From contig JAGLGN010000006.1 in the NCBI GenBank assembly GCA_023144005.1, forward strand, positions 1,841-65,840: a stretch of 64,000 nt of DNA. The letters are read 5' to 3'. A model generated the notes under the pieces. That model saw nothing but the letters and a program-made list of their open reading frames with translations. It did not search any database and was not told where the DNA came from. Origin of the DNA: a bacterium. Lineage in GTDB: Bacteria > AUK180. The position numbers were made by a program, and so were the translations under genes. Positions 344-64,000 of this stretch are shown piece by piece. The first letter of the stretch is position 1. Each line of letters begins with the position of its first letter.

Positions 344-3300
344 CTAATTACAGGAACAACCGGCTTTCTTGAGACAATTGACCATAACTGTCGCAACATC
401 GCTGCCGGAAGCATCGTTCACCGTGACCGTGACCGTAAAGGTCTGTGTCACATTATCCGAGAAGGTGTAGCTGGTCGTTGTCTTAGGACCGTCAGTCTTG
501 GAAGACGACTTACCATCTCCCCAGTCAAAAGCATAGTGAAATATAGTATCGTCGGGATCGTCTACGGTCACAGTAAAGCCCATAACTACGCCGCCAAGTA
601 ATGTGCATGAGAAAGAGGTTATAACAGGCGGCTGATTGACGCCGATACATGCAGCGTCCTTTTCACAATCGGAGTCGGCACAATCGATATTTCCGTCACC
701 GTCATTGTCTATAGCATCGTTACAATTTGTTTCAACTGTTTGACACAGATAGTAAACACTGCAATCCGGGTCATCGCAATCCACAAGGCCGTCGCCGTCA
801 TCGTCGCTTCCATTGTCGCAGATCTCCGGATTAACGGCTACGCAATTTGCCGCAGCGACACAGTCCGGATCATCACAATCGGTATAGCCGTCGCCGTCAT
901 CGTCAAGGCCATTATTACAAATGGTTTCAATCTTGACACATGCAGTATGGTCTACACAGTCCGTATCCTCGCAATCAATGTAGCCGTCCCCGTCATTATC
1001 CACACCGTCATCACAGATCTCAGTATCGATTCCGGTGGGTGCTGGGAAAAGGATCACGACCATCGTATCCGTATCATAGGCGCCAGAAGGATCTACCACC
1101 TCCAGATACACATCAATATATGCGGGTTCGCTATCATCCGCGCCACCCTTGGCAATAAGAAAATCATCTTCTGTAAATGTATGATAGTATGTGGCACCAT
1201 AATGTGAATTTCCGGTAGAGAAGGCCCAGTAATATGTAAGGTCCGTTAGTGCATCATCACAATCACCCGAACCTCTCGCGTCAAAGTACATCATATTTCC
1301 CACGGTGGTAAAATTATCCGCTCCGGCATTCGCTACCGGCGGGTAATTATATCCCCAGTCCTTCGTGCTGAATATATAGGTCTGCGGACATTTATACTCC
1401 TGAGATTGATCAGTTTTCACAATGATCTCGAAATCACATTGATCCATACCAAATGGAACTGCCTCATATGGAAGATCGGTAATTTGATTTGAAAAATGCA
1501 AATACAGCTTTACGGTGCTGCCGTAATCAGGGATCCACAGATTGGAATGGATCGAGGAGTTCAATTGCAATTCTATCGGGGCTCTTTCTCTTGAGCCCGG
1601 TGTCGGGGAATCATCCCTCCAATCCCAGATAACTCCTCCATTAGACGGATAATATGTGGACGATCCCTGGATCTCTATGGTTATCCTGTCGATATAAGGA
1701 AATGCCGAGGAGGTATCTCCCGAAGAAAGACAGATACTTTTGTATGTCGGTTCTTTGATCTCAATGGAATCAAGGATCATATCCCCGTGGCGGAAGTTCT
1801 CCAATGTGAGGACCACGGTATCATTGCTCGGCCCTTCAAGGACAACATCGCCGCTTAAATAAGGATCACTCATCCCGCTAGGGAAATAAAGGGCGTCGGC
1901 CTGATGGATGGTGAGGAAGCTTACACCTGGGTTATCTTCACTCGGTGGATTATACACATAATTATACGAAGAATCATATGCCATGGTCCTGAACCATAGA
2001 TCATCACGGCTATCGGGAGTTATATACCATTTGACATTATACCAGGTTTCAGGAGGCGAGACAGGAATATAGTGCACATGAGGGGTCATATCGCCGCCGA
2101 AATACATAATGTCCAACGGTACAGCCGCGAATGCCGTTTGGTAAACACCGCATTCATCGATAACATCAAAATCGATGATTATCGGCTCTATATTTGAGGC
2201 AACGCACTCTGAAAAACCAAGTCCGCCGTAATTGAAAACGATATTCGGAGGGCTGTTATCAAATTCAGTAACCTTTATATAGGTATCTTCGGCGTCGCCT
2301 ACGGGTATCATAGTAAAGGAATCACATTTATCATATGCGACTATCTCATAGTAGATATCCGGCAGGTTATCATAGGTACCGCCGCCGGACCAATCTTCAA
2401 TGGCGGTTTCGGGGATCGTCCATGTGAATCGACCCTCCGCGTCCGGGCCTTTTCTGTCGTATATCTCGATCAGAGAGCCCTTATTCCCCGCAGCATCCAG
2501 TTTGGCATAATAAGCCTGTACACGGTTCAGATCAAGTCCGGCAACACCATTGGCGCCGTCCAATATGGTCGCCATGACGAGGCCGTCACAAGCATTGGCA
2601 ACTATTTGTGAGCTGTAATCGCTAATGGTAGGGGGCTGAGAATCATAAATATTCAAGGTAGCGGAATTTGAGTAAGACTCCCTCACAGTAACCGTGCAGT
2701 CCTCTCCGATGAAATCGTCCTGAACATAGACCTGGAGGAACATATCAAAAGGCTCTTCGCCGGCGTATTCCTCGGTACATACGGAATCATTACCGTAGGG
2801 AGAGCCCATATCCGCATTAATAACAGCCGAGGCGGGAACATCAGCCGCATAATAATTCAAACTGCCGGCGTTTTTCAATTCCAATGATACCGCATCAGCT
2901 ATCGTTTCACCGTAATACCAGTAAAGCAATGTAAGCTGCGGCAGCCTTGAAGGACAATTATCATTCAAACCCACTCTGACAGTAAAGGCCGTAGAAACAG
3001 GCAGCGCCTGGGAGGTCCAGTCAATTGCGGCTCCGCCGATGGCAATGATCTCAATATTGTCGATCGAAGGATTATCACAGCATGATTTATCCATTGGTTC
3101 AAAACTGGAGATCACTGTAGAAAGAGTATATTCCTTCATTCTGACCTCTTCAAAGAAAGCATTATCCCCTGAGAGTAGAGCATTCAGGGCAGCTGTGATC
3201 GTAACCATCCGTCTGGTCTCGGGCCAGGAAACGTGGACGGTTACCCTCTTCATATCAAGGCCCTGTCCGGTATAGTCATCAGCGAGATTATTATCTGAAT

Positions 3301-3664
3301 CTATTATTGCTCTTATACGATAGGGTTTATCTTCAGTTCCCGAAAGATCCTGTTCCATGACCACATATTCCACCTCTTCTTTAACAAAGTATTTTTTGGT
3401 GAGTTTGACGCCCATAGATACATAGATATCCCTGTCGTTCTCATAGAGCCAGTTGACATCGGATATGCTGTTGAAATCCGACTGTGCGCGCGACTCAATA
3501 AGATCGATACGGGTCTTTGCAATGAGCTTTGCCTCGTTCTTATGTGTAAGTTGTCTGGCGTTAGCGCCTACTACTCCCAACATCCTGATCACGGCAAAAA
3601 GTCCGACGGTTATAATGGTAACTGCAACAAGAAGCTCGATTATCGTGGTACCTTTGCGTTTCAT
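344..3664 (-). CDS. Giant (1106 aa) pilin-fused adhesin: prepilin-type N-terminus, ~900 aa beta-rich region, four TSP3-like Ca-binding DxDxDGxxDCxDxDC repeats, C-terminal PKD-like domain
   Basis: N-term MKRKGTTIIELLVAVTIITVGLFAV is a prepilin signal. The C-terminal region has DNDGDGYIDCEDTDC, DDDGDGYTDCDDPDC, DDDGDGLVDCDDPDC and DNDGDGNIDCADSDC repeats, then a PKD-like ...HYAFDWGDG...TFTVTVTVNDASG segment. Confidence 0.75.
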   Translation of the reverse strand: MKRKGTTIIELLVAVTIITVGLFAVIRMLGVVGANARQLTHKNEAKLIAKTRIDLIESRAQSDFNSISDVNWLYENDRDIYVSMGVKLTKKYFVKEEVEYVVMEQDLSGTEDKPYRIRAIIDSDNNLADDYTGQGLDMKRVTVHVSWPETRRMVTITAALNALLSGDNAFFEEVRMKEYTLSTVISSFEPMDKSCCDNPSIDNIEIIAIGGAAIDWTSQALPVSTAFTVRVGLNDNCPSRLPQLTLLYWYYGETIADAVSLELKNAGSLNYYAADVPASAVINADMGSPYGNDSVCTEEYAGEEPFDMFLQVYVQDDFIGEDCTVTVRESYSNSATLNIYDSQPPTISDYSSQIVANACDGLVMATILDGANGVAGLDLNRVQAYYAKLDAAGNKGSLIEIYDRKGPDAEGRFTWTIPETAIEDWSGGGTYDNLPDIYYEIVAYDKCDSFTMIPVGDAEDTYIKVTEFDNSPPNIVFNYGGLGFSECVASNIEPIIIDFDVIDECGVYQTAFAAVPLDIMYFGGDMTPHVHYIPVSPPETWYNVKWYITPDSRDDLWFRTMAYDSSYNYVYNPPSEDNPGVSFLTIHQADALYFPSGMSDPYLSGDVVLEGPSNDTVVLTLENFRHGDMILDSIEIKEPTYKSICLSSGDTSSAFPYIDRITIEIQGSSTYYPSNGGVIWDWRDDSPTPGSRERAPIELQLNSSIHSNLWIPDYGSTVKLYLHFSNQITDLPYEAVPFGMDQCDFEIIVKTDQSQEYKCPQTYIFSTKDWGYNYPPVANAGADNFTTVGNMMYFDARGSGDCDDALTDLTYYWAFSTGNSHYGATYYHTFTEDDFLIAKGGADDSEPAYIDVYLEVVDPSGAYDTDTMVVILFPAPTGIDTEICDDGVDNDGDGYIDCEDTDCVDHTACVKIETICNNGLDDDGDGYTDCDDPDCVAAANCVAVNPEICDNGSDDDGDGLVDCDDPDCSVYYLCQTVETNCNDAIDNDGDGNIDCADSDCEKDAACIGVNQPPVITSFSCTLLGGVVMGFTVTVDDPDDTIFHYAFDWGDGKSSSKTDGPKTTTSYTFSDNVTQTFTVTVTVNDASGSDVATVMVNCLKKAGCSCN

Positions 3665-6633: not shown

Positions 6634-6778
6634 TGCCTCCGATTGGCTAGTGTGCCGTTCCATAAATACCATAACAATGGCTGATGCTATCGCATCCCAT
6701 ATTCATGGAACAGCACGCTAATTTATCAATATTCTACAAAATCCGCAAGGAAAATCCCTGCGAGGTCAGAAATGTATC

Positions 6779-8382: not shown

Positions 8383-8957
8383 GTGTAGTGTTTCATAATT
8401 AGCTTGATAATGGAATGCTTAGATTTAAGTCAATTCCGACGTACAATGAGCGCGGTGTACCCTTTGTGGTACATAAGCGAAGAGAAAGGAATAAATTGAC
8501 CAAAGATGGGATTCCCTTCGGGCTGAAGCTCTTTTTCCGTCTTCTGCGTTGCTAGTGCTCTTTTTCATAAATACGATGGCAATGGAATGTTTCGATTTGA
8601 GTCAATTCCAACGAACAATAAGCGCGGCGTACCCTTTGTGGTCCGTAAGCGGAGAGAGAGGAAGAAATTGACCAAAGATGATATTCCCTTCGGGCTGAGG
8701 CTCTTTTTCTGTCTTCTGTGTTGCTCGTCGCTTACATACCGCTGTGGGTATGCGACGATCCTCGCTCTTAGAATCCAGAACAAAATAGCATCAGCCATTG
8801 TTACCGTATTTATGAATCAGAGCACTCATTGCTTACATACCGCAGTGGGTATGCGGCGTTCCTCACGCCTCGAATACGGAATAAAATTGCATCAGCCATT
8901 GTCCAGCCAATTATAAAACACTTCACTATAGTGTAGTGTTTTGTGATTCAGAGCACT
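8383..8957. repeat. Composite pile-up of three tandem or partial copies of the ~270 bp MITE-like element (family A): truncated copy ~8383-8560, full copy ~8553-8826, partial copy ~8827-8957
   Basis: Three successive 'aatggaatg(c/t)ttagatttgagtcaattcc...' and 'cttacataccgc..gggtatgc' modules. TIR-like 'agtgctctttttcataaatacg' and 'cgtatttatgaatcagagcact' flank the middle copy. Confidence 0.8.
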
Positions 8958-11109: not shown

Positions 11110-11250
11110 TAAAATCCGTCTCTCTCATTCTTTATCCCTCATCCTTCATTTCCCCGCTTGTCACTTGTGCTCTTGTTGCTTGTGCCCTGCGAAGCGTGTT
11201 CCACTGGGTCCACTTGTTCCTGGGTCCACTGCGAAGCTTAACTTATAAAC
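11110..11250. repeat. Interspersed repeat family B, partial copy (module with 'gttccactgggtccact...cctgggtccactgcgaagc')
   Basis: Near-identical to 37260-37336 and 39830-39900, with short direct GGGTCCACT-type subrepeats. Confidence 0.65.
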
Positions 11251-11284: not shown

Positions 11285-11971
11285 TCACATATAGATCAAA
11301 TAGACTGCCATTATACCGATATCGGCAAGGAAATGGCTGATGACAGGTGCGTAAATAGATCGATAATGTAATCTCATATGGCCAAAAAAGATCCCTGAAA
11401 GAAAGATCGAAGCGGAAAAAAGGACAGCGGAAGTCGAGGCGAATAATATGCTTGTGGTTACAATGTGATGAAGTGTAAAAAGGCCACTGGAAAACAAAAG
11501 AGCTCTTCGGGGCCCAAAGAAATACCTCAATCCGCCAAGGACATATCCCCTCCAGAAGAATTCTTCCACAGTAGCGTTGGCAATAGTCATGAATACCAGG
11601 AATAATACAATATTCGAATCCGTTACTCCCCATTTGGATGTAAGCTCCAGTATCCCTTCCATATCCAATACGCTGCTTCCGAAGATCCTGAAGAAGATGA
11701 AGATAACGGCGAACATTGCCGCTCCCGTAACAAGGCCGGGAAGGAGGGCCCTTTTAAAATTGTGAAGAGCAATGATTCGGGAAAATGAAAAGTCGAAACC
11801 CCTTGGGAAAATATGAAAAAAAGGCACAAGCAGACATAGGAAGATATGATATCCGATAAAAGTTATCCAGACATTTCCGATATATTTCAAAGAAAAATAG
11901 ATCCAGAAAGAAGCGGAAAGCGCGGATAATATGATTACGAACAGGTCTTTGGGAGGACTTTTTCTACTCAA
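11285..11971 (-). CDS. CPBP family intramembrane glutamic endopeptidase (CAAX protease / Abi-like)
   Basis: Conserved EEFFWRG (EExxxR) and FxxxH / HxxxD-like motifs (LFTLHHIV, HFLADI) within a multi-TM protein. Confidence 0.7.
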   Translation of the reverse strand: MSRKSPPKDLFVIILSALSASFWIYFSLKYIGNVWITFIGYHIFLCLLVPFFHIFPRGFDFSFSRIIALHNFKRALLPGLVTGAAMFAVIFIFFRIFGSSVLDMEGILELTSKWGVTDSNIVLFLVFMTIANATVEEFFWRGYVLGGLRYFFGPRRALLFSSGLFTLHHIVTTSILFASTSAVLFSASIFLSGIFFGHMRLHYRSIYAPVISHFLADIGIMAVYLIYM

Positions 11972-12111
11972 TCCAAAATTCCATTCCCGCCAAACGATGA
12001 CATCAACAACTCCTCTATTTTTAGTTTAAAGGAGTTTCAATATTTTGTCAAATCCATGCTTCTTGACAAATACCCACTTTATAGTAAAATATACCGATGG
12101 AAAAAGGGGCC

Positions 12112-12257
12112 AGTGATCTGATTCAGAAATACGACAACAATGGAATGTTTAGATTTGAGTCAATTCCAACGAACAATGAGTGCGGCGTTCCTCGCTCCTT
12201 TCATGCTGAACAAAATAGCATCAGCCATTATCAGGGTATTTATGAATCAGAACACTA
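12112..12257. repeat. Internally deleted (~146 bp) copy of MITE family A that keeps both terminal inverted repeats
   Basis: 'agtgatctgattcagaaatacg' ... 'aatggaatgtttagatttgagtcaattccaacgaacaatgag' joins directly to 'tgcggcgttcctcgc...aaaatagcatcagccatt...ggtatttatgaatcagaacact'. The ~120 bp middle present in full copies is missing. Confidence 0.8.
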
Positions 12258-13102
12258 AGATATTTTATTTTACAGGAACCGGAAACACCGCCATCCTTGC
12301 TGGACTTTTTCAAAAGCAATTCGAAAAAGCGAATATAGCCGCTGAGCTATTTCCGACAGAGGAGATCTTGAACAGCGGGAAGCTCCCATCTTTGAGCAAT
12401 TGCTATATCCTTCTAGGATTCCCCGTGCATGCCTTCAATGCGCCGCCCAATGTATTTGACTTTGTTCACCGCCTTCCCCCGGGAATGGGGAAGAAGATCA
12501 TCCTCTTCAAGAATGCCGGGGACCCTATGAAGAACGGAGCTTTCACATGGGTGAAGAAAGTATTGAGAAAAAAAGGATATATCATCTCCTATGAGGCGTC
12601 TTTTGTTATGCCGTCAAATACATTTTTGAAATACCCGCCCGGATTATCTTATGACCTCTATCTTACAGCGAAACTAAGAATAGCAAGTATGGTCAAAGAA
12701 ATAATTGACGGAAAATGTGCTCATGTGAAAAGCAGTTTTGTTATTGATATCCTCGCAAAGCTCTTTATTACATTTAAAGGAAAAGGCACGAAGTATTTCG
12801 GCAGAAAAATAGAGCTAAGCAAGAGTAAATGCTTAAAATGCGGACAATGCGCGGCATCTTGCCCTGTAAATAATATCATACAAAATATGGACGGGTATCC
12901 GGTCTGGGGAACAAAGTGCGCCCTCTGTATGAGATGTATGTATATCTGCAAACAGGACGCCATCAGGCCGGGATATTTAAAATTCTTTAGGATCGCTTCG
13001 GGGTATAATGCGATTGATATGATGACCCCAAGTATTGATGCCTTACCATATAAAAGCCGATTAATAGAACGCATACACAGACATACCGTTAAATATCTTT
13101 GA
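12242..13102 (+). CDS. EFR1-family ferredoxin: flavodoxin-like domain plus 2x[4Fe-4S] ferredoxin domain
   Basis: KIFYFTGTGNTA flavodoxin-type motif, and CLKCGQCAASCP plus CALCMRCMYICKQDAIRP cluster motifs. The start codon ATGAATCAGAACACTAAG (MNQNTK) is the outward TIR of the upstream MITE. Confidence 0.65.
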   Translation: MNQNTKIFYFTGTGNTAILAGLFQKQFEKANIAAELFPTEEILNSGKLPSLSNCYILLGFPVHAFNAPPNVFDFVHRLPPGMGKKIILFKNAGDPMKNGAFTWVKKVLRKKGYIISYEASFVMPSNTFLKYPPGLSYDLYLTAKLRIASMVKEIIDGKCAHVKSSFVIDILAKLFITFKGKGTKYFGRKIELSKSKCLKCGQCAASCPVNNIIQNMDGYPVWGTKCALCMRCMYICKQDAIRPGYLKFFRIASGYNAIDMMTPSIDALPYKSRLIERIHRHTVKYL

Positions 13103-14884: not shown

Positions 14885-15540
14885 AGGAGCTCCTTTGAAA
14901 GAGGTGTTAAACCGAAGGCGAATGAGGCATTTTTCAAGGTGTTCTCATGTAATTTTCTCGTATATGCCGCTGTGGTATCTATCGGAATAACGGGAAGAAT
15001 ATCCCGTACAAATGCTGAACGCGCAGACTGCTCCACGCAGAGGTTCGTCATTACTCCGCAGATCACCAACTGAGTGACATCACCTGCTCTCAATATTTTC
15101 TCCAGATCTGTATTATAGAACGGGTCGTAAGTGCTCTTGTGTATAATGTGCATTAATGGGATATCTGCCTTGCTGATCTCAGATATTTCAGATATGAAAG
15201 CAGAGGAAGCATCATCCATCTTTCTTCGCCACCATTTCCCCATATTGATGCCGCTGTCTTCAATGTGTTTTGTAAGAATGATCGGAAGCGAATGCTCGTT
15301 ATAATATTTAATAAGATCCTTTACCTTAGAAATAATTGATGGGGCGGAAGGGATAAAGGCATGGGATTCGGGTGAAAAAAAATATTCCTGCATATCCACA
15401 ATGAGCAGAGCGGAACTATCCATTTGCAATAATGCGGACCTGTCTGGAGAATGCGCAAGAATAGTGTTTTTTATCTCTAATGAAACCTTGTCAATGATAG
15501 ATGATGTGAAATACAATTCCCTCTTAGTGTTCTGATTCAT
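14881..15540 (-). CDS. Isochorismatase-family cysteine hydrolase
   Basis: ALLIVDMQEYF and LVICGVMTNLCVEQSARSA (catalytic Cys region). The N-terminus MNQNTK is encoded by the TIR of the MITE at 15526-15798. Confidence 0.65.
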   Translation of the reverse strand: MNQNTKRELYFTSSIIDKVSLEIKNTILAHSPDRSALLQMDSSALLIVDMQEYFFSPESHAFIPSAPSIISKVKDLIKYYNEHSLPIILTKHIEDSGINMGKWWRRKMDDASSAFISEISEISKADIPLMHIIHKSTYDPFYNTDLEKILRAGDVTQLVICGVMTNLCVEQSARSAFVRDILPVIPIDTTAAYTRKLHENTLKNASFAFGLTPLSKELL

Positions 15541-15798
15541 AAATATGGTGACAATGGAATGTTTAGATTTGAGTCAATTTCAACAAACAATGAGGGCGGT
15601 GTACCCTTGGTGGTACATAAGCGAAGAGAGAGGAAGAAATTTACCAAAGATGATATTCCCTTCGGACTGATGTTCTTTTTCTGTCTTCTTCGTTGCTCGT
15701 TACTTACATACCGCAGTGGGTATGCTGCGCTCCTCGCGCCTTGAATACGAAGCAAAATAGCATCAGCCATTGTTCCCATATTTATGATTCAGATCACT
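15526..15798. repeat. MITE family A, full-length copy
   Basis: TIRs 'agtgttctgattcataaata' (left) and 'tatttatgattcagatcact' (right), with internal conserved hairpins (tcccTTCGgga; cataccgcagtgggtatg). Confidence 0.85.
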
Positions 15799-15825
15799 TG
15801 TAAATCCCATCATCTCACTATGATG

Positions 15826-36695: not shown

Positions 36696-37146
36696 TGTTC
36701 CTCCTCTTTTTGCAATTTATCGTTCAAACAGCCTATTTATTTTTCTACGCAACAAAAAAGATATTTTACCAGTTTTATTTTGAAAGTCAAGTATTTATGG
36801 GAGATTAATGAATAAATAATTGGCTTAAAATGGTGCCGTCGGGATATATTACTTCCTATCTATATACACATTGGGCATATTCTCGCTTATTAATTATTAT
36901 TTACCAATATCCGCATCCGTAGCCGAAAAGCCAATATTCGTTCAAGTAGCGAATGTCGTACCTTAAGGGAGGGATTCCCCGCTTTCGCGGGAATGAAGAG
37001 AAGAAGGCAGAATTGCAGAAAACAGATGTGAAGAATGTTCCGTTTAATTCTAAACATTGCGTAGAGTGTACAATTGCTACGCAATTTTCAACTCTCCGCT
37101 TGGTACTTTTACATCGGGACAGTCGAACGCCTGCGGCGTACGGCAT

Positions 37147-37336
37147 GTCCCCTATCTTGGTTGGGGTACGGCGTGATATGATTGTATCAGTAGAATGAAT
37201 GGTTTAAGCGAAATATTGATTTTCCGTTACGGATGTGTTTCTTTTCCATTTCCCCACTTGTGCCTTGTGCTCTTCTCCCTGTTCCACTGGGCTACTGGGT
37301 CACTGGGTTACTGGGAAGCGCGTACCCGCTTCGCTA
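37147..37336. repeat. Interspersed repeat family B, full copy: modules 'gtcccctatcttgg ttggggtacggcgtga...', 'cgaaatattgattttccgttacggatg' and the 'gttccactgggctactgggtcactgggttactggg' microrepeat
   Basis: High similarity to 43191-43400 in the first two modules and to 39712-39900 and 11110-11250 in the last two. Confidence 0.7.
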
Positions 37337-37636
37337 TCCCCAATTGATATCAAATTCAGTTATATCATCTCCTTTGGTAAGAGACTTGGTGACCTTGACA
37401 GAAAGGTCTTTGACCCCGGTCATCATCATGGCGGTATGTATCCATCCGTGGATTCCGGGTTCTATATATTTGTTCATATCCTGAAAATCGATGATCTGTA
37501 CCTTGGCGGAGTTCTTTTTCAGCTCTACTGTCTGCATCGCGGAAGGTTTATAATAGGATGGGAAAATAACGCTTGCTTTTTTGATGATGAAGGAAGGGCT
37601 TCCCATTTTCACAAAGATCTTGTAAATACCTGTCAA
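37334..37636 (-). CDS. Hypothetical protein, ~100 aa; the frame continues upstream into the MITE TIR where the MITE ATG is mutated to ATA
   Basis: ORF MTGIYKIFVKMGSPSF... (TTG start in the ORF track). Upstream in frame is ...VFINQNTLGIFSAEFA from 'ttataaatcagaacact'. Confidence 0.35.
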   Translation of the reverse strand: MTGIYKIFVKMGSPSFIIKKASVIFPSYYKPSAMQTVELKKNSAKVQIIDFQDMNKYIEPGIHGWIHTAMMMTGVKDLSVKVTKSLTKGDDITEFDINWG

Positions 37637-37663: not shown

Positions 37664-37946
37664 AGTGTTCTGATTTATAAATACGATGACAATGGAATGT
37701 TTAGATTTGAGTCAATTCCAACGAACAATGAGCACGGCGTACCCTTAGTGGTACGCAAGCGAAGAGAGAGGAAGAAATTGACCAAAGATAAGATTCCCTT
37801 CGGACTGATGCTCTTTTTCTGTCTTCGGCGTTCCTCGTCCCTTACATACCGCTGCGGGTATGCAGCGCTCCTCGCGCCTTGAATACGGAATAAAATAGCA
37901 TCAGCCATTGTTGCCGTCTTTATGAATCAGATCACTATCATAGGTC
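37664..37946. repeat. MITE family A, full-length copy
   Basis: TIRs 'agtgttctgatttataaatacg' and 'tctttatgaatcagatcact'. Confidence 0.85.
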
Positions 37947-38209
37947 ACTTGCATATCTCCATTACAAAGCTTCTCTACGATGGCCTTTGTGGGTATAGTA
38001 ACGGCATCTTCCATAGAATACCACGCTCCCACGAAGGGGTTCTCCAGGATCTCTCTTGATCTTTCAGGCAGAGAGGCATACCATTCATCATATTTATTCG
38101 GATAATGTTTCTTGACATATTCCCTTAAGGGAAGAACCGCCGCGCCTTTTACTTCCATATATTTTACTCCTCTATTTGGGGACGGTGGTTGCAAAAGTTG
38201 CAAGTCCAT
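37901..38209 (-). CDS. Hypothetical small protein; the C-terminal codons and stop lie inside the MITE, and the N-terminal codons lie inside the 24 bp inverted repeat (probable true start MEVKG at ~38158)
   Basis: ORF MDLQLLQPPSPNRGVKYMEVKGAAVLPLREYVKKHYPNKYDEWY... Confidence 0.35.
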   Translation of the reverse strand: MDLQLLQPPSPNRGVKYMEVKGAAVLPLREYVKKHYPNKYDEWYASLPERSREILENPFVGAWYSMEDAVTIPTKAIVEKLCNGDMQVTYDSDLIHKDGNNG

Positions 38210-39068: not shown

Positions 39069-39357
39069 ATTGCCTCCTTCGTATGATATATTTTAAACAC
39101 AATCAGAATATAAATCAACCCTTCAGCGGCAGCATTTATCTGAATTTGTATGATAACATACCATAATAGCAGAAGGAGATGTGTGAAGTCTGAAGTGTGA
39201 AGTGAAAAATAGGTGATAAGGTAATAAGTTTGTAGGTAGAGAACGATGGATTATCGGGTCAAGCCCGATAATGACAGAGGAGAGAGGAAATAACATTAAT
39301 AGATGTGTGGAGAATATTTACATATGATTCTACGCCCATTCTCCCTCCACCCGCCCA

Positions 39358-39629
39358 GGTGATCTGAGTCATAAATAAGATGGCAATGGAATGTTTAGAT
39401 TTGAGGTAATTCCAACGAACAATGAGCGCAGCGTACCCTTTGTGGTCCGCAAGCGAAAAGAGAGGAAGAAATTGACCAAAGATTAGATTCCCTTCGGGCC
39501 GAAGCTCTTTTCTGTCTTCTGTGTTGCTCGTTACTTACATACCGCCTTGGGTATGCAGTGTTCCTCGCGCCTTGAATCCGTAACAAAATAGCTTCAGCCA
39601 TTGCTATCGTATTTATGACTCAGAACACT
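39358..39629. repeat. MITE family A, full-length copy with compensatory TIR variant (tgagtca...tgactca)
   Basis: TIRs 'ggtgatctgagtcataaataag' and 'tatttatgactcagaacact'. Confidence 0.85.
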
Positions 39630-39711
39630 ATTCTCCAGGGACGGAGGTGGTGAATTTTTCAACCCACTTATTTGTCTGAATTGAATGTATTAAGTTAAAA
39701 TATTCAACCTG

Positions 39712-39900
39712 CCGTCCCGTAGGCTGATCGCTGCGGCGTTCTATATTTGTTACGGATAAATTAATGATAAATACGAAATAGTGATTTTCCGGTTACGGAT
39801 GCGTTTCCTTTTCCCTTACACACTTGTTCCTTGTCTCTCTCCCCCTGTTCCACTGGGTCCACTTGTACCTGGGTCCACTGCGCAGCGTGTCGCTTGTGCG
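39712..39900. repeat. Interspersed repeat family B copy (second and third modules)
   Basis: 'cgaaatagtgattttccggttacggatgcgtttcc...cctgttccactgggtccacttgtacctgggtccactgcgcagc'. Confidence 0.7.
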
Positions 39901-43087: not shown

Positions 43088-43190
43088 ACTATATAATAAG
43101 GCATTTTAAAAATATGTAAAGATTCCAATCTCATTTCTTCCTTGCATTTTCCCACTTTGCACCTCACACTTCACACTTTCTTTTGCACTT

Positions 43191-43400
43191 GTCCCCTATC
43201 TTGATTGGGGTGCGGCGTGAAACGATTGTAACAGAAAATTTAATGTATTAAACGAAATATTTATTTCCGGTTACGGGGGCGCGCAACGCGTGACGTGAAG
43301 AAAATCAAATATCAGTTTTTCTGCTTGCGTCCCTCTTTCTCAACGTGGAACCTTTGAACTTTGAACGCTTCGTTACTGCGAAGCTCCCGCTTCGCTAATT
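43191..43400. repeat. Interspersed repeat family B copy (first and second modules plus a divergent tail), preceded by a reverse-complement GTGAAGTG-type motif at 43155-43180
   Basis: 'gtcccctatcttgattggggtgcggcgtgaaacgattgtaacag...aacgaaatatttatttccggttacggggg...cccgcttcgcta'. Confidence 0.7.
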
Positions 43401-63936: not shown

Positions 63937-64000
63937 AGTGTGCCTTCAAGCGCATTTTGCATTTGAAGTGTGAAGTGTGGTGTGTGAAGTGTAAGTAGTG
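63937..64000. repeat. GTGAAGTG-type microsatellite-like repeat (also at 39181-39205 and, as reverse complement, at 43155-43180)
   Basis: 'gaagtgtgaagtgtggtgtgtgaagtgtaagtagtg'. The other copies sit beside family-B repeats. Confidence 0.6.

Follow-up and report, generated by a model that had tools for sequence, protein, structure and literature searches.

Terminal repeats of a small TA-duplicating transposon as probable start-codon donors for bacterial genes

Introduction

How do two unrelated genes come to begin with the same codons? On contig JAGLGN010000006.1 of a bacterium of the AUK180 lineage (GCA_023144005.1), within the 64,000-nt stretch analyzed here (the window), an EFR1-family flavodoxin-ferredoxin gene and an isochorismatase-family gene both start at an ATG in the outward tip of a transposable element of the miniature inverted-repeat type (MITE), and both encode MNQNTK there. 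A sequence-only reading of this DNA had proposed that the terminal inverted repeat (TIR) of the element acts as a portable promoter and start codon, or else that the element homes to gene starts. We examined this proposal with filled and empty insertion sites from related genomes and with a census of reading frames at element ends. We assign a probability of about 0.75 to the explanation that the ATG of the TIR is donated to genes after in-frame insertion, with transcription remaining that of the host. Start-codon donation at the two genes of the window, taken by itself, appears likely from the comparisons below, to the same degree or slightly more.

Results and Discussion

A TA-duplicating element with an outward ATG at each tip

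The string TATTT-ATG-AAT-CAG-AAC-ACT-AAG lies at 12237-12259 on the plus strand, and the 18-mer ATGAATCAGAACACTAAG is repeated exactly at 15523-15540 on the minus strand. With up to three mismatches allowed, the window holds six matches in all, two exact and four with three mismatches, against 0.1 expected. Both exact copies are outward tips of the TIRs of one repeat family, with the TIR consensus GTGWTCTGATTCATAAATAnGATGACAATGG; read outward, every TIR end gives ...TATTT ATG AAT CAG AAC AC and then the flanking TA. Measured from GTG to CAC, the full element is 271 bp long with TIRs of 31-32 nt, and arms of 31-36 nt are 84-91% complementary within and between copies. The family has the size distribution of a MITE, with a mode at 271 bp, derivatives of 143, 69, and about 26 bp, and, judged by length only, no internal open reading frame (ORF) above 80 codons. 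Among the loci listed, 33 of 53 paired copies are 270-272 bp long.

The element is dispersed in many copies. The window has six insertion sites (Table 1), and scanning one genome per species with an internal MITE motif gave at least 74 loci, almost all from two uncultured metagenome-assembled genomes (MAGs), JAGLWT01 (GCA_023133295.1) and JAIVYW01. With the window added, the loci listed contain 166 TIR ends, which clustering by flank reduces to 128 non-redundant ends. T (80%) and A (65%) lead the flanks of these 128, followed by a purine; TA opens 73 of them (TAA 29, TAG 26, TAT 12, TAC 6). A pyrimidine precedes the left TA in 14 of 17 copies. The target is YTAR with its TA duplicated, giving the flank consensus Y-TA · element · TA-R (a raised dot marks junctions throughout). 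Empty orthologous sites are known for five insertions, those at leuS, an outer-membrane protein (OMP) gene, the isochorismatase gene, EFR1, and rsmE, and the TA duplication at rsmE is perfect. We also considered TAAG as the target and a 3-bp duplication of TAA. Both were rejected, since TA with a YTAR preference fits better, and TAAG is as frequent as expected given TA plus a purine.

This structure fixes what the repeat can contribute to a gene. The DNA of the element itself amounts to ATG AAT CAG AAC AC only, or 4 2/3 codons; the T closing codon 5 and the A opening codon 6 are the duplicated target, and the AG of codon 6 belongs to the host. Because a purine is preferred after TA, codon 6 is AAN or AGN, hence the lysine in both genes. 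The sequence-only reading had the repeat supply all six codons; both genes do encode MNQNTK, but the last part of it comes from the target and the host.

IS630 / Tc1-mariner elements and their MITEs likewise duplicate TA, prefer a palindromic target of the YTAR (CTAG-like) kind, and have TIRs about 30 nt long, and such a target with TA duplication is the pattern of that family. The family is not known to have an outward ATG phased with the TA. No TIR pair 0.7-3 kb apart enclosing a transposase-like ORF was found in about 570 kb (first residues inspected by eye), which leaves membership in the family putative. An Rfam search of the whole window at the gathering threshold returned one tRNA and nothing for the MITE.

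Table 1. Features of the window discussed in the text.
Feature	Position	Strand	Remarks
MITE mini-copy, 69 bp, in the leuS leader	6650..6718	-	Two TIRs only, TA-flanked; ATG at 6663
Composite upstream of the OMP gene	8383..8956	+	Variant A 8383-8926 carrying full copy B 8555-8825; 26-nt remnant 8931-8956
Native sigma-70-like promoter of EFR1, TTGACA-N16-TAAAAT	12063..12090	+	11/12 matches; 22 nt outside the MITE
Ancestral EFR1 ATG, now opening a 53-codon upstream ORF through the MITE	12097..12258	+	TAA stop 14 nt past the TIR ATG
MITE, internally deleted, 143 bp	12113..12255	+	Left TIR 12113-12143, right TIR 12225-12255; right TA copy 12256-12257
EFR1-family flavodoxin-ferredoxin gene, 286 aa	12242..13102	+	Right TIR has the putative start, its outward ATG; MNQNT·KIFYFTGTGNT
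Isochorismatase / cysteine-hydrolase family gene, 219 aa	14881..15540	-	Left TIR has the putative start, its outward ATG; MNQNT·KRELYFT
MITE, full, 271 bp	15527..15797	+	After codon 4 of the isochorismatase-family gene
80-codon ORF inside the MITE	15537..15779	-	TGA overlapping the TIR ATG (ATGA); candidate for translational coupling
Ancestral ATG ATG of the isochorismatase gene	15808..15813	-	Severed from the gene body; frame stops after 16 codons inside the MITE
Split gene, C-terminal fragment, about 108 residues	37334-37663	-	In frame with the ATA-mutated TIR
MITE, full, splitting a gene of about 185 aa	37665..37935	+	TIR start position reads ATA
Split gene, N-terminal fragment	37937-38158	-	
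MITE, full, intergenic	39359..39628	+	No gene fused; inside another recurrent repeat

The EFR1 gene before and after insertion

The insertion is found at the same position of EFR1 in two relatives, L002 (GCA_023133295.1; syntenic, 88% protein identity) and L078 (GCA_030596505.1). When the three sequences are aligned, the stretch TATTTATGAATCAGAACAC(T/A)AAGATATTTTATTTT, like its shorter form TATTTATGAATCAGAACAC(T/A)AAG, differs by one change, which is synonymous; further into the element the sequences have diverged, L002 having a 2-nt indel and L078 a core that has been replaced. In both relatives no in-frame start other than the TIR ATG precedes the conserved FYFTGTGNT, counting back to the first in-frame stop upstream. 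Longer in-frame starts exist in the window only, and two of them were rejected (the ORF from 12140 and the NCBI call of 308 aa from 12176), since the 2-nt indel and an in-frame stop remove the extension in L002 and L078. By this comparison the NCBI calls would be 22 codons too long in the window (P0001, 308 aa) and 42 codons too short in L078 (244 aa), an example of a class of annotation errors that MITE starts would explain.

The state before insertion is preserved elsewhere. Protein P0272, of the same 90% cluster as EFR1 and likewise 286 aa long, begins MEKRVKVLYFTGTGNT. Its DNA, L081 (GCA_030591945.1), has no element at the site and reads TTGACA-N16-TAAAAT-ATACCG-ATG GAA AAA CGA GT[T A]AA GTA CTA TAT TTT, with the target in brackets, which translates to MEKRVKVLYFTG and gives the ancestral N-terminus MEKRV·KVLYFTG. 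From this empty site it follows that the MITE entered the TA between codons 5 and 6 and changed MEKRV into MNQNT. The ratio of non-synonymous to synonymous substitution rates (dN/dS), computed for EFR1 and the isochorismatase gene only, is 0.18-0.22 for EFR1, which indicates purifying selection after the insertion.

The isochorismatase-family gene

The second gene belongs to a family with the N-terminus MKExYFT, in which Y and F are (nearly) invariant among 20 homologues. Two empty sites are available, reading ATG ATG GAT TCC AAG AGG GAA TTG TAT in L078 and ATG ATG GGT TCC AAC AGG GAA TTA TAT in L079, and they give the ancestral N-terminus MM(D/G)S(K/N)RELYFT. In the window, the gene body is preceded solely by the TIR ATG. 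A further state is seen in L002, where a 21-nt remnant of both TIR tips (AGTGATCTGAATAAGAACACT) stands at the same point in frame from the old ATG ATG and leaves a scar peptide. For this gene dN/dS is 0.11-0.15, and the window branch, with L078 as the outgroup, carries seven synonymous and three non-synonymous codon changes (p = 0.0035 against neutrality). Public data contain five different MNQNTK alleles and three empty-type alleles.

At both genes, then, repeat-bearing orthologues have MNQNTK, and repeat-free ones begin differently (MEKRVK in L081, MMDSK and MMGSN in L078 and L079). The orthologue comparison that the sequence-only reading had recommended thus bears out its idea of a portable start codon that makes new N-termini.

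The two genes, 2 kb apart, differ in their synonymous distances. In EFR1 the closest pair is L002 and L078, at dS 0.19, with distances of 0.32-0.34 to the window. In the isochorismatase gene it is the window and L002 (0.11, against 0.19-0.20). Such discordant trees suggest recombination between lineages in this region.

rsmE and other genes in sister genomes

A third gene with known empty and filled states is rsmE. The empty sites in L082 and L083 read ...AAG AAA AGA AC[T A]AT ATT TTT ATC GCG and encode (M)VSAQKKKRT·NIFIAEP. L035 has a composite element of 393 bp at precisely this TA, and the product would begin MRQHT·NIFIAEP; MRQHT is found in seven of the eight members of the rsmE cluster. 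The target TA (L035 5032-5036 vs L082 1530-1534) lies in the TAA stop of an upstream DUF3467 gene, for which the left junction TA·G restores a TAG stop. The insertions at EFR1, the isochorismatase gene, and rsmE all lie 4-10 codons into the gene, with the TA in codon phase 3/1.

According to Pfam, most of the fused proteins have complete N-terminal domains, such as PHP from residues 8-10, the PUA domain of RsmE from 17, and Cation_efflux from 21. The TIR has probably donated its start to about half a dozen more genes of the sister genomes.

Reading frames at element ends

The shared phase could also arise without any use of the ATG. If coding TA dinucleotides lie mostly in phase 3/1, insertion bias alone would place the TIR ATG in frame with genes that are in fact dead or started elsewhere, and the ATG would be functionless. 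We evaluated this with an annotation-free test, measuring the stop-free length outward from the boundary in three frames at each of the 128 non-redundant ends. At 100 codons or more, the frame of the TIR ATG (frame 0) had 19 open ends, compared with four in frame +1 and five in frame +2; at 150 codons or more, the counts were 17, two, and three. The excess over one third has p = 2e-4 and 3e-5, respectively. In the long ORFs of the window, 46.5% of coding TA dinucleotides are in phase 3/1, which puts the TIR ATG in frame, and over a null of 0.465 the excess is modest at the lower threshold (p = 0.019) and stronger at the higher one (p = 0.003). Insertions in the first codons that leave no other start, sorted manually, were in frame in about nine of ten cases (p = 0.006), an EamA-family gene being the exception.

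The opposite situation, where a long ORF reads into the element, has the reverse bias. In 12 of 22 such ORFs the TA falls at codon positions 1-2; about half of these end at the junction codon (TAG or TAA), and the others, whose TA copy is mutated, stop within 5-8 codons. In seven of the 22 the TA is at positions 2-3, and most stop within three codons, two continuing for 45 and 73. Only three of the 22 have phase 3/1, in which translation would read on, a depletion with p = 0.001. The phase in excess at outward ends is thus the rare one where an ORF enters the element; the frames track the translational outcome and not the phase of the target, and the reversal is as predicted by selection on translated products. 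Reciprocal frame biases at the 5' and 3' ends of genes can also serve, with no need for annotation, to reveal selection on transposon insertions that depends on translation. The state of the ATG itself added no signal (intact at 16 of 19 fused and 84 of 109 unfused ends).

Insertion bias as the sole cause is therefore improbable in our view. It draws support from the phase distribution of coding TA and from two insertions that are in frame without a functional fusion, at the split gene (37665-37935) and a truncated Sir2 gene; it is opposed by that depletion, by the intact state of EFR1 and the isochorismatase gene under purifying selection, by the lack of another in-frame EFR1 start in L002 and L078, and by the conservation of the TIR-coded codons in an otherwise decaying element.

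Probable transcription from host promoters

The sequence-only reading had also suggested that TATTTA, just upstream of the start, serves as a -10 element, so that the repeat would be a portable promoter, and had offered homing to gene starts as the other possibility. Taken to the full, the element would drive and initiate its gene unaided, or would seek out gene starts actively. Four of the six independent insertion sites in the window do lie within about 25 nt of a start codon, and other bacterial repeats carry outward promoters (Correia elements) or a promoter, ribosome-binding site, and ATG together (Neisseria REP2; PMC3184786). The last A of the hexamer, however, is that of the ATG. Were the hexamer a -10 element, transcription would begin downstream of the ATG, so that the two roles exclude each other, and TATTTA was rejected on this ground and for the lack of any hit there in a consensus scan. 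The same scan found no sigma-70-like site in the element facing either EFR1 or the isochorismatase gene.

EFR1 instead has its own near-consensus promoter outside the MITE (Table 1), kept in the window, L002, and L078, which are filled, and in L081, which is empty. From the end of its -10 to the ancestral ATG at 12097 there are 6 nt, so the ancestral mRNA probably had little or no leader. The isochorismatase gene is in an operon directly behind a phosphoglycerate mutase gene, and rsmE, too, directly follows another gene in an operon. Fused ends have no orientation bias (eight L-type vs seven R-type), so no single internal promoter serves them, and most ends, 109 of 128, are fused to no gene. 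A portable promoter is not supported, and we consider this alternative, with homing included, quite unlikely. The TA/YTAR target, the AT-rich boundaries of genes, and the selective survival of in-frame insertions account for the apparent attraction to gene starts.

The EFR1 promoter has a divergent partner. The interval 12023-12090, between a CPBP-protease-like gene (11285-11971, minus strand) and EFR1, contains TTGACA-16-TAAAAT on the plus strand and TTGACA-17-TAAACT on the minus strand, both near consensus, with a common palindrome TTGTCAA...TTGACAA. The arrangement is operator-like and conserved in four genomes.

How the AUG may be initiated

In none of the fused copies is the ATG (...CCATTGTNNNCGTATTT) preceded by a Shine-Dalgarno or GGAG-like motif, although many genes of the organism have a Shine-Dalgarno sequence (28 of 62 in a naive count), for example GGAGG before EF-Tu. 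In the predicted RNA fold of a short copy the two TIRs pair and bury the AUG, and a full copy is predicted to form one long hairpin (-104.8 kcal/mol, z = -6.4). How an AUG buried in a hairpin is initiated without a Shine-Dalgarno sequence is a mechanistic question, with reinitiation and RNA processing as candidate answers.

Translated ORFs that cross the element could deliver ribosomes to the AUG. The ORF from the ancestral EFR1 ATG remains open across the element in all three filled genomes despite their indels (53 codons in the window, 48 in L002, 23 in L078). Its stop is the TGA of ATGA in L002 and L078; in the window it is the TAA of the target copy, 14 nt downstream. The full element itself contains an ORF of 77-80 codons that ends at ATGA at the L-type end and is complete in 11 of 35 full-length copies, as at the isochorismatase gene (Table 1). 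An ORF of at least 75 codons in this frame, stopping at a codon that overlaps the start position, was present at all five fused L-type ends, compared with 14 of 38 unfused ones (p = 0.012); the stop was the TGA of ATGA in four of the five and a TAA in the ATA-mutated copy of the split gene.

Based on these ORFs and the predicted folds, we tentatively favor termination-reinitiation by ribosomes that unwind the hairpin, at slightly less than even odds, over two alternatives, processing by RNase III and direct, Shine-Dalgarno-independent initiation. RNase III could instead cut the TIR-TIR duplex and expose the AUG on a short-leader or leaderless mRNA. The very stable predicted hairpin pairing both TIRs would suit this, as would the probably leaderless ancestral EFR1 mRNA, which makes leaderless initiation plausible here. 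Hairpins of Correia elements are cut by RNase III. For the present element cleavage is hypothetical, and it would leave unexplained both the upstream ORFs that stay open across the element in three genomes and their preferential retention at fused ends, which makes the processing route hard to favor and, to us, rather improbable.

A proposed course from insertion to new start

The following course of events would account for these data. A non-autonomous 271-bp transposon with shorter deletion derivatives duplicates TA at YTAR sites, and its ATG AAT CAG AAC AC plus the duplicated T·A would be read as M-N-Q-N-T, with hand-over to the gene at a codon boundary. A copy landing at a phase-3/1 TA within the first ~10 codons would cut the gene off from its own start, and the TIR ATG would become the start codon, replacing the first few residues. 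Out-of-frame insertions at these positions are nearly absent, so that selection would have filtered the survivors. Transcription presumably remains host-driven, by the native promoter for EFR1 and by operon read-through for the isochorismatase gene and rsmE. Ribosomes on the upstream ORF may cross the element to its stop, which is either the TGA within ATGA or TAR in the target copy, and may reinitiate at the AUG.

Several observations weigh against this explanation. Use of the start codon is deduced from comparative sequence only. A TTG at codon 9 may be an alternative start of the isochorismatase gene and would still keep the invariant Y and F. Part of the frame bias is non-selective, given the 46.5% of TA in phase 3/1, and the independence of the census is imperfect even after clustering, with loci picked by motif, two or three related MAGs, and copies within repeats. 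Some frame-0 cases are truncations, such as a Sir2 protein without profile positions 1-38 and a P-loop protein without its first strand. In the EamA-family gene the N-terminal insertion is out of frame, leaves no evident start, and is common to two genomes. Coupling cannot apply everywhere, as the upstream ORF of an R-type end is usually just 5 codons long; of the five fused L-type ends, one belongs to the split gene.

It is also conceivable, if somewhat unlikely, that the TIR is an evolved translation-safe terminus, shaped by selection at the level of the element, that lets copies settle harmlessly at gene boundaries and in first codons. Outward, the ATG of frame 0 matches the phase in which coding TA is most common, ATGA gives frame +1 a TGA stop, and frame +2 ends at the TAR of the target copy; inward, TA·G restores a stop and GTG-WTC-TGA stops a second frame. 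The 77-codon ORF of the master copy, ending at ATGA, would then bring ribosomes through the hairpin to the new start. If this were true, the family would rewrite N-termini genome-wide, and captured genes could share translational control.

Other element copies near genes

Two further genes had been offered as examples by the sequence-only reading. An OMP gene was said to begin with GTG at 8943 in the same register. The codon is in frame, but it lies in the 26-nt TIR-tip remnant (8931-8956), nine codons upstream of the gene's own start at ATG 8970, which opens a typical signal peptide (MKRSILLLCLFSLL). In L002 the site is empty, with a single TAA (AATTAATAAG·CGAGGCTTT ATG AAA AGA), and the gene has the same ATG as in the window; GTG 8943 is therefore a mere upstream extension and was rejected as the start. 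The other example, a gene at 37636 that continues into a TIR whose ATG is now ATA, is also in frame but proved to belong to a gene that the MITE has split, of which it is the C-terminal half. In a library-wide HMMER search, the ORF at 37636 matched residues ~77-184 of homologues of ~185 aa. The ORF across the MITE matches residues 1-70, so that the copy at 37665-37935 interrupts the gene. A tblastn search against the collected loci found no orthologue of the split gene.

An example that the earlier reading overlooked is the mini-copy before leuS, which is in frame and whose site is empty in L002. Its ATG at 6663, 10 codons upstream, was rejected as the start, as leuS has its own ATGATG (6633/6630) after GGAGG.

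Relation to known repeats

Repeats with a promoter, a site for ribosome binding, and an ATG before unrelated genes are known from Neisseria (REP2) and Borrelia (IR-A/IR-B) (PMC3184786; PMC10969869). Like these, the element described here is a dispersed repeat directly upstream of unrelated genes that appears to give them their ATG, and the downstream ORFs of EFR1, the isochorismatase gene, and rsmE would use the repeat ATG in the manner of REP2. Unlike REP2, which is without TIRs and has its own promoter and ribosome-binding site, it is a TIR-bounded MITE with TA duplication in which we found neither a promoter nor a Shine-Dalgarno sequence, and it has an ATG at both tips, so that either orientation works.

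Rickettsia palindromic elements (RPE), BOX, ERIC, and Anabaena MITEs fuse ORFs to host genes (PMC10969869, PMC3184786). The similarity is that an in-frame repeat is tolerated in coding genes and adds repeat-encoded residues. Those cases, however, are internal insertions or C- or N-terminal extensions that are translated through, whereas the body of the present element does not enter the protein, since read-through stops, and the last 4 2/3 codons of the TIR would form a replacement initiation site. Stops of this kind, which come after 16 codons at the isochorismatase gene and at 37901 in the split one, keep the whole element from being translated.

The Correia elements (CREE) of Neisseria are also TA-duplicating MITEs at the 5' ends of genes and in operons. 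Their transcripts form a long hairpin and alter the expression of the neighboring gene, and a long hairpin is likewise predicted here. The roles described for them rest on outward promoters, IHF sites, and processing by RNase III and do not include the donation of a start codon. The phrase "start codon" does not occur in a 2024 review of prokaryotic MITEs, nor are start codons mentioned in a 2024 survey of 183,232 genomes. Phrase searches of the literature for start-codon donation by inverted repeats of MITEs or insertion sequences gave nothing beyond REP2, the Borrelia cases, and general ORF fusions. The difference from known repeats, as far as the sequence comparisons go, is that the putative donor is the TIR of a TA-duplicating MITE, with an ATG at both ends and with the ancestral state given by empty sites for three genes. 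Repeats are usually seen as intergenic noise or promoter donors; the series of empty site, filled site, and in-frame scar points here to replacement of the start codons of conserved genes and would provide a concrete route for transposon-made N-termini in bacteria.

Additional repeats and minor observations

The 21-26-nt remnants of both TIR tips (L002 13297-13317; window 8931-8956) are marks of former full copies, and deletion between the short direct repeats (TGAATCA) that lie within the inverted TIRs is their probable origin. Both strands of the master copy are open, with a 77-codon ORF (MADAILFRIQGARSAAYP...) and one of 61-81 codons (MFRFESIPTNNE...), for example at 37675-37908 (minus) and 37697-37882 (plus); nested copies extend both to about 200 codons. 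In the EamA-family gene (L063 4469-4490, L017 553-575), the TIR ATGAAT has become AAGGAG, similar to a Shine-Dalgarno sequence.

The terminal ~20 nt (...CGAACGACTGTCAGCGTATTTATGAAWCAGAACAC) recur in at least one further repeat family. These shared-end repeats, and the repeats that host MITE copies, are found in L047, L051, and L078 (6300-6370) and in the window at 39630-39700 and 39300-39358. Many MITE copies lie inside other repeats that recur, flanked for example by TAAACTCTTCGCCCCGTTAGAATC, TCGTATTGCTCCGCAATTTTCAAC, and CTGGGTGGGTGGAGGGAGAATGGG. A separate family, TGTCCCCTATCTTG...TTTTCCGTTACGGATG...CTGTTCCACTGGGTCCACTTGT, occurs near the 3' ends of genes (37146-37291, 39786-39886, 43190-43276, 11197-11237), and short repeats of the CACTTCACAC type are present at 43153-43178 and 63966-63991.

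Unrelated to the MITE, four copies of a 62-nt unit are spaced 96-99 nt apart at 666-1018, inside an ORF of 1106 aa (344-3664, minus strand). They most likely represent a repeated aspartate-rich module of a PKD-domain surface protein.

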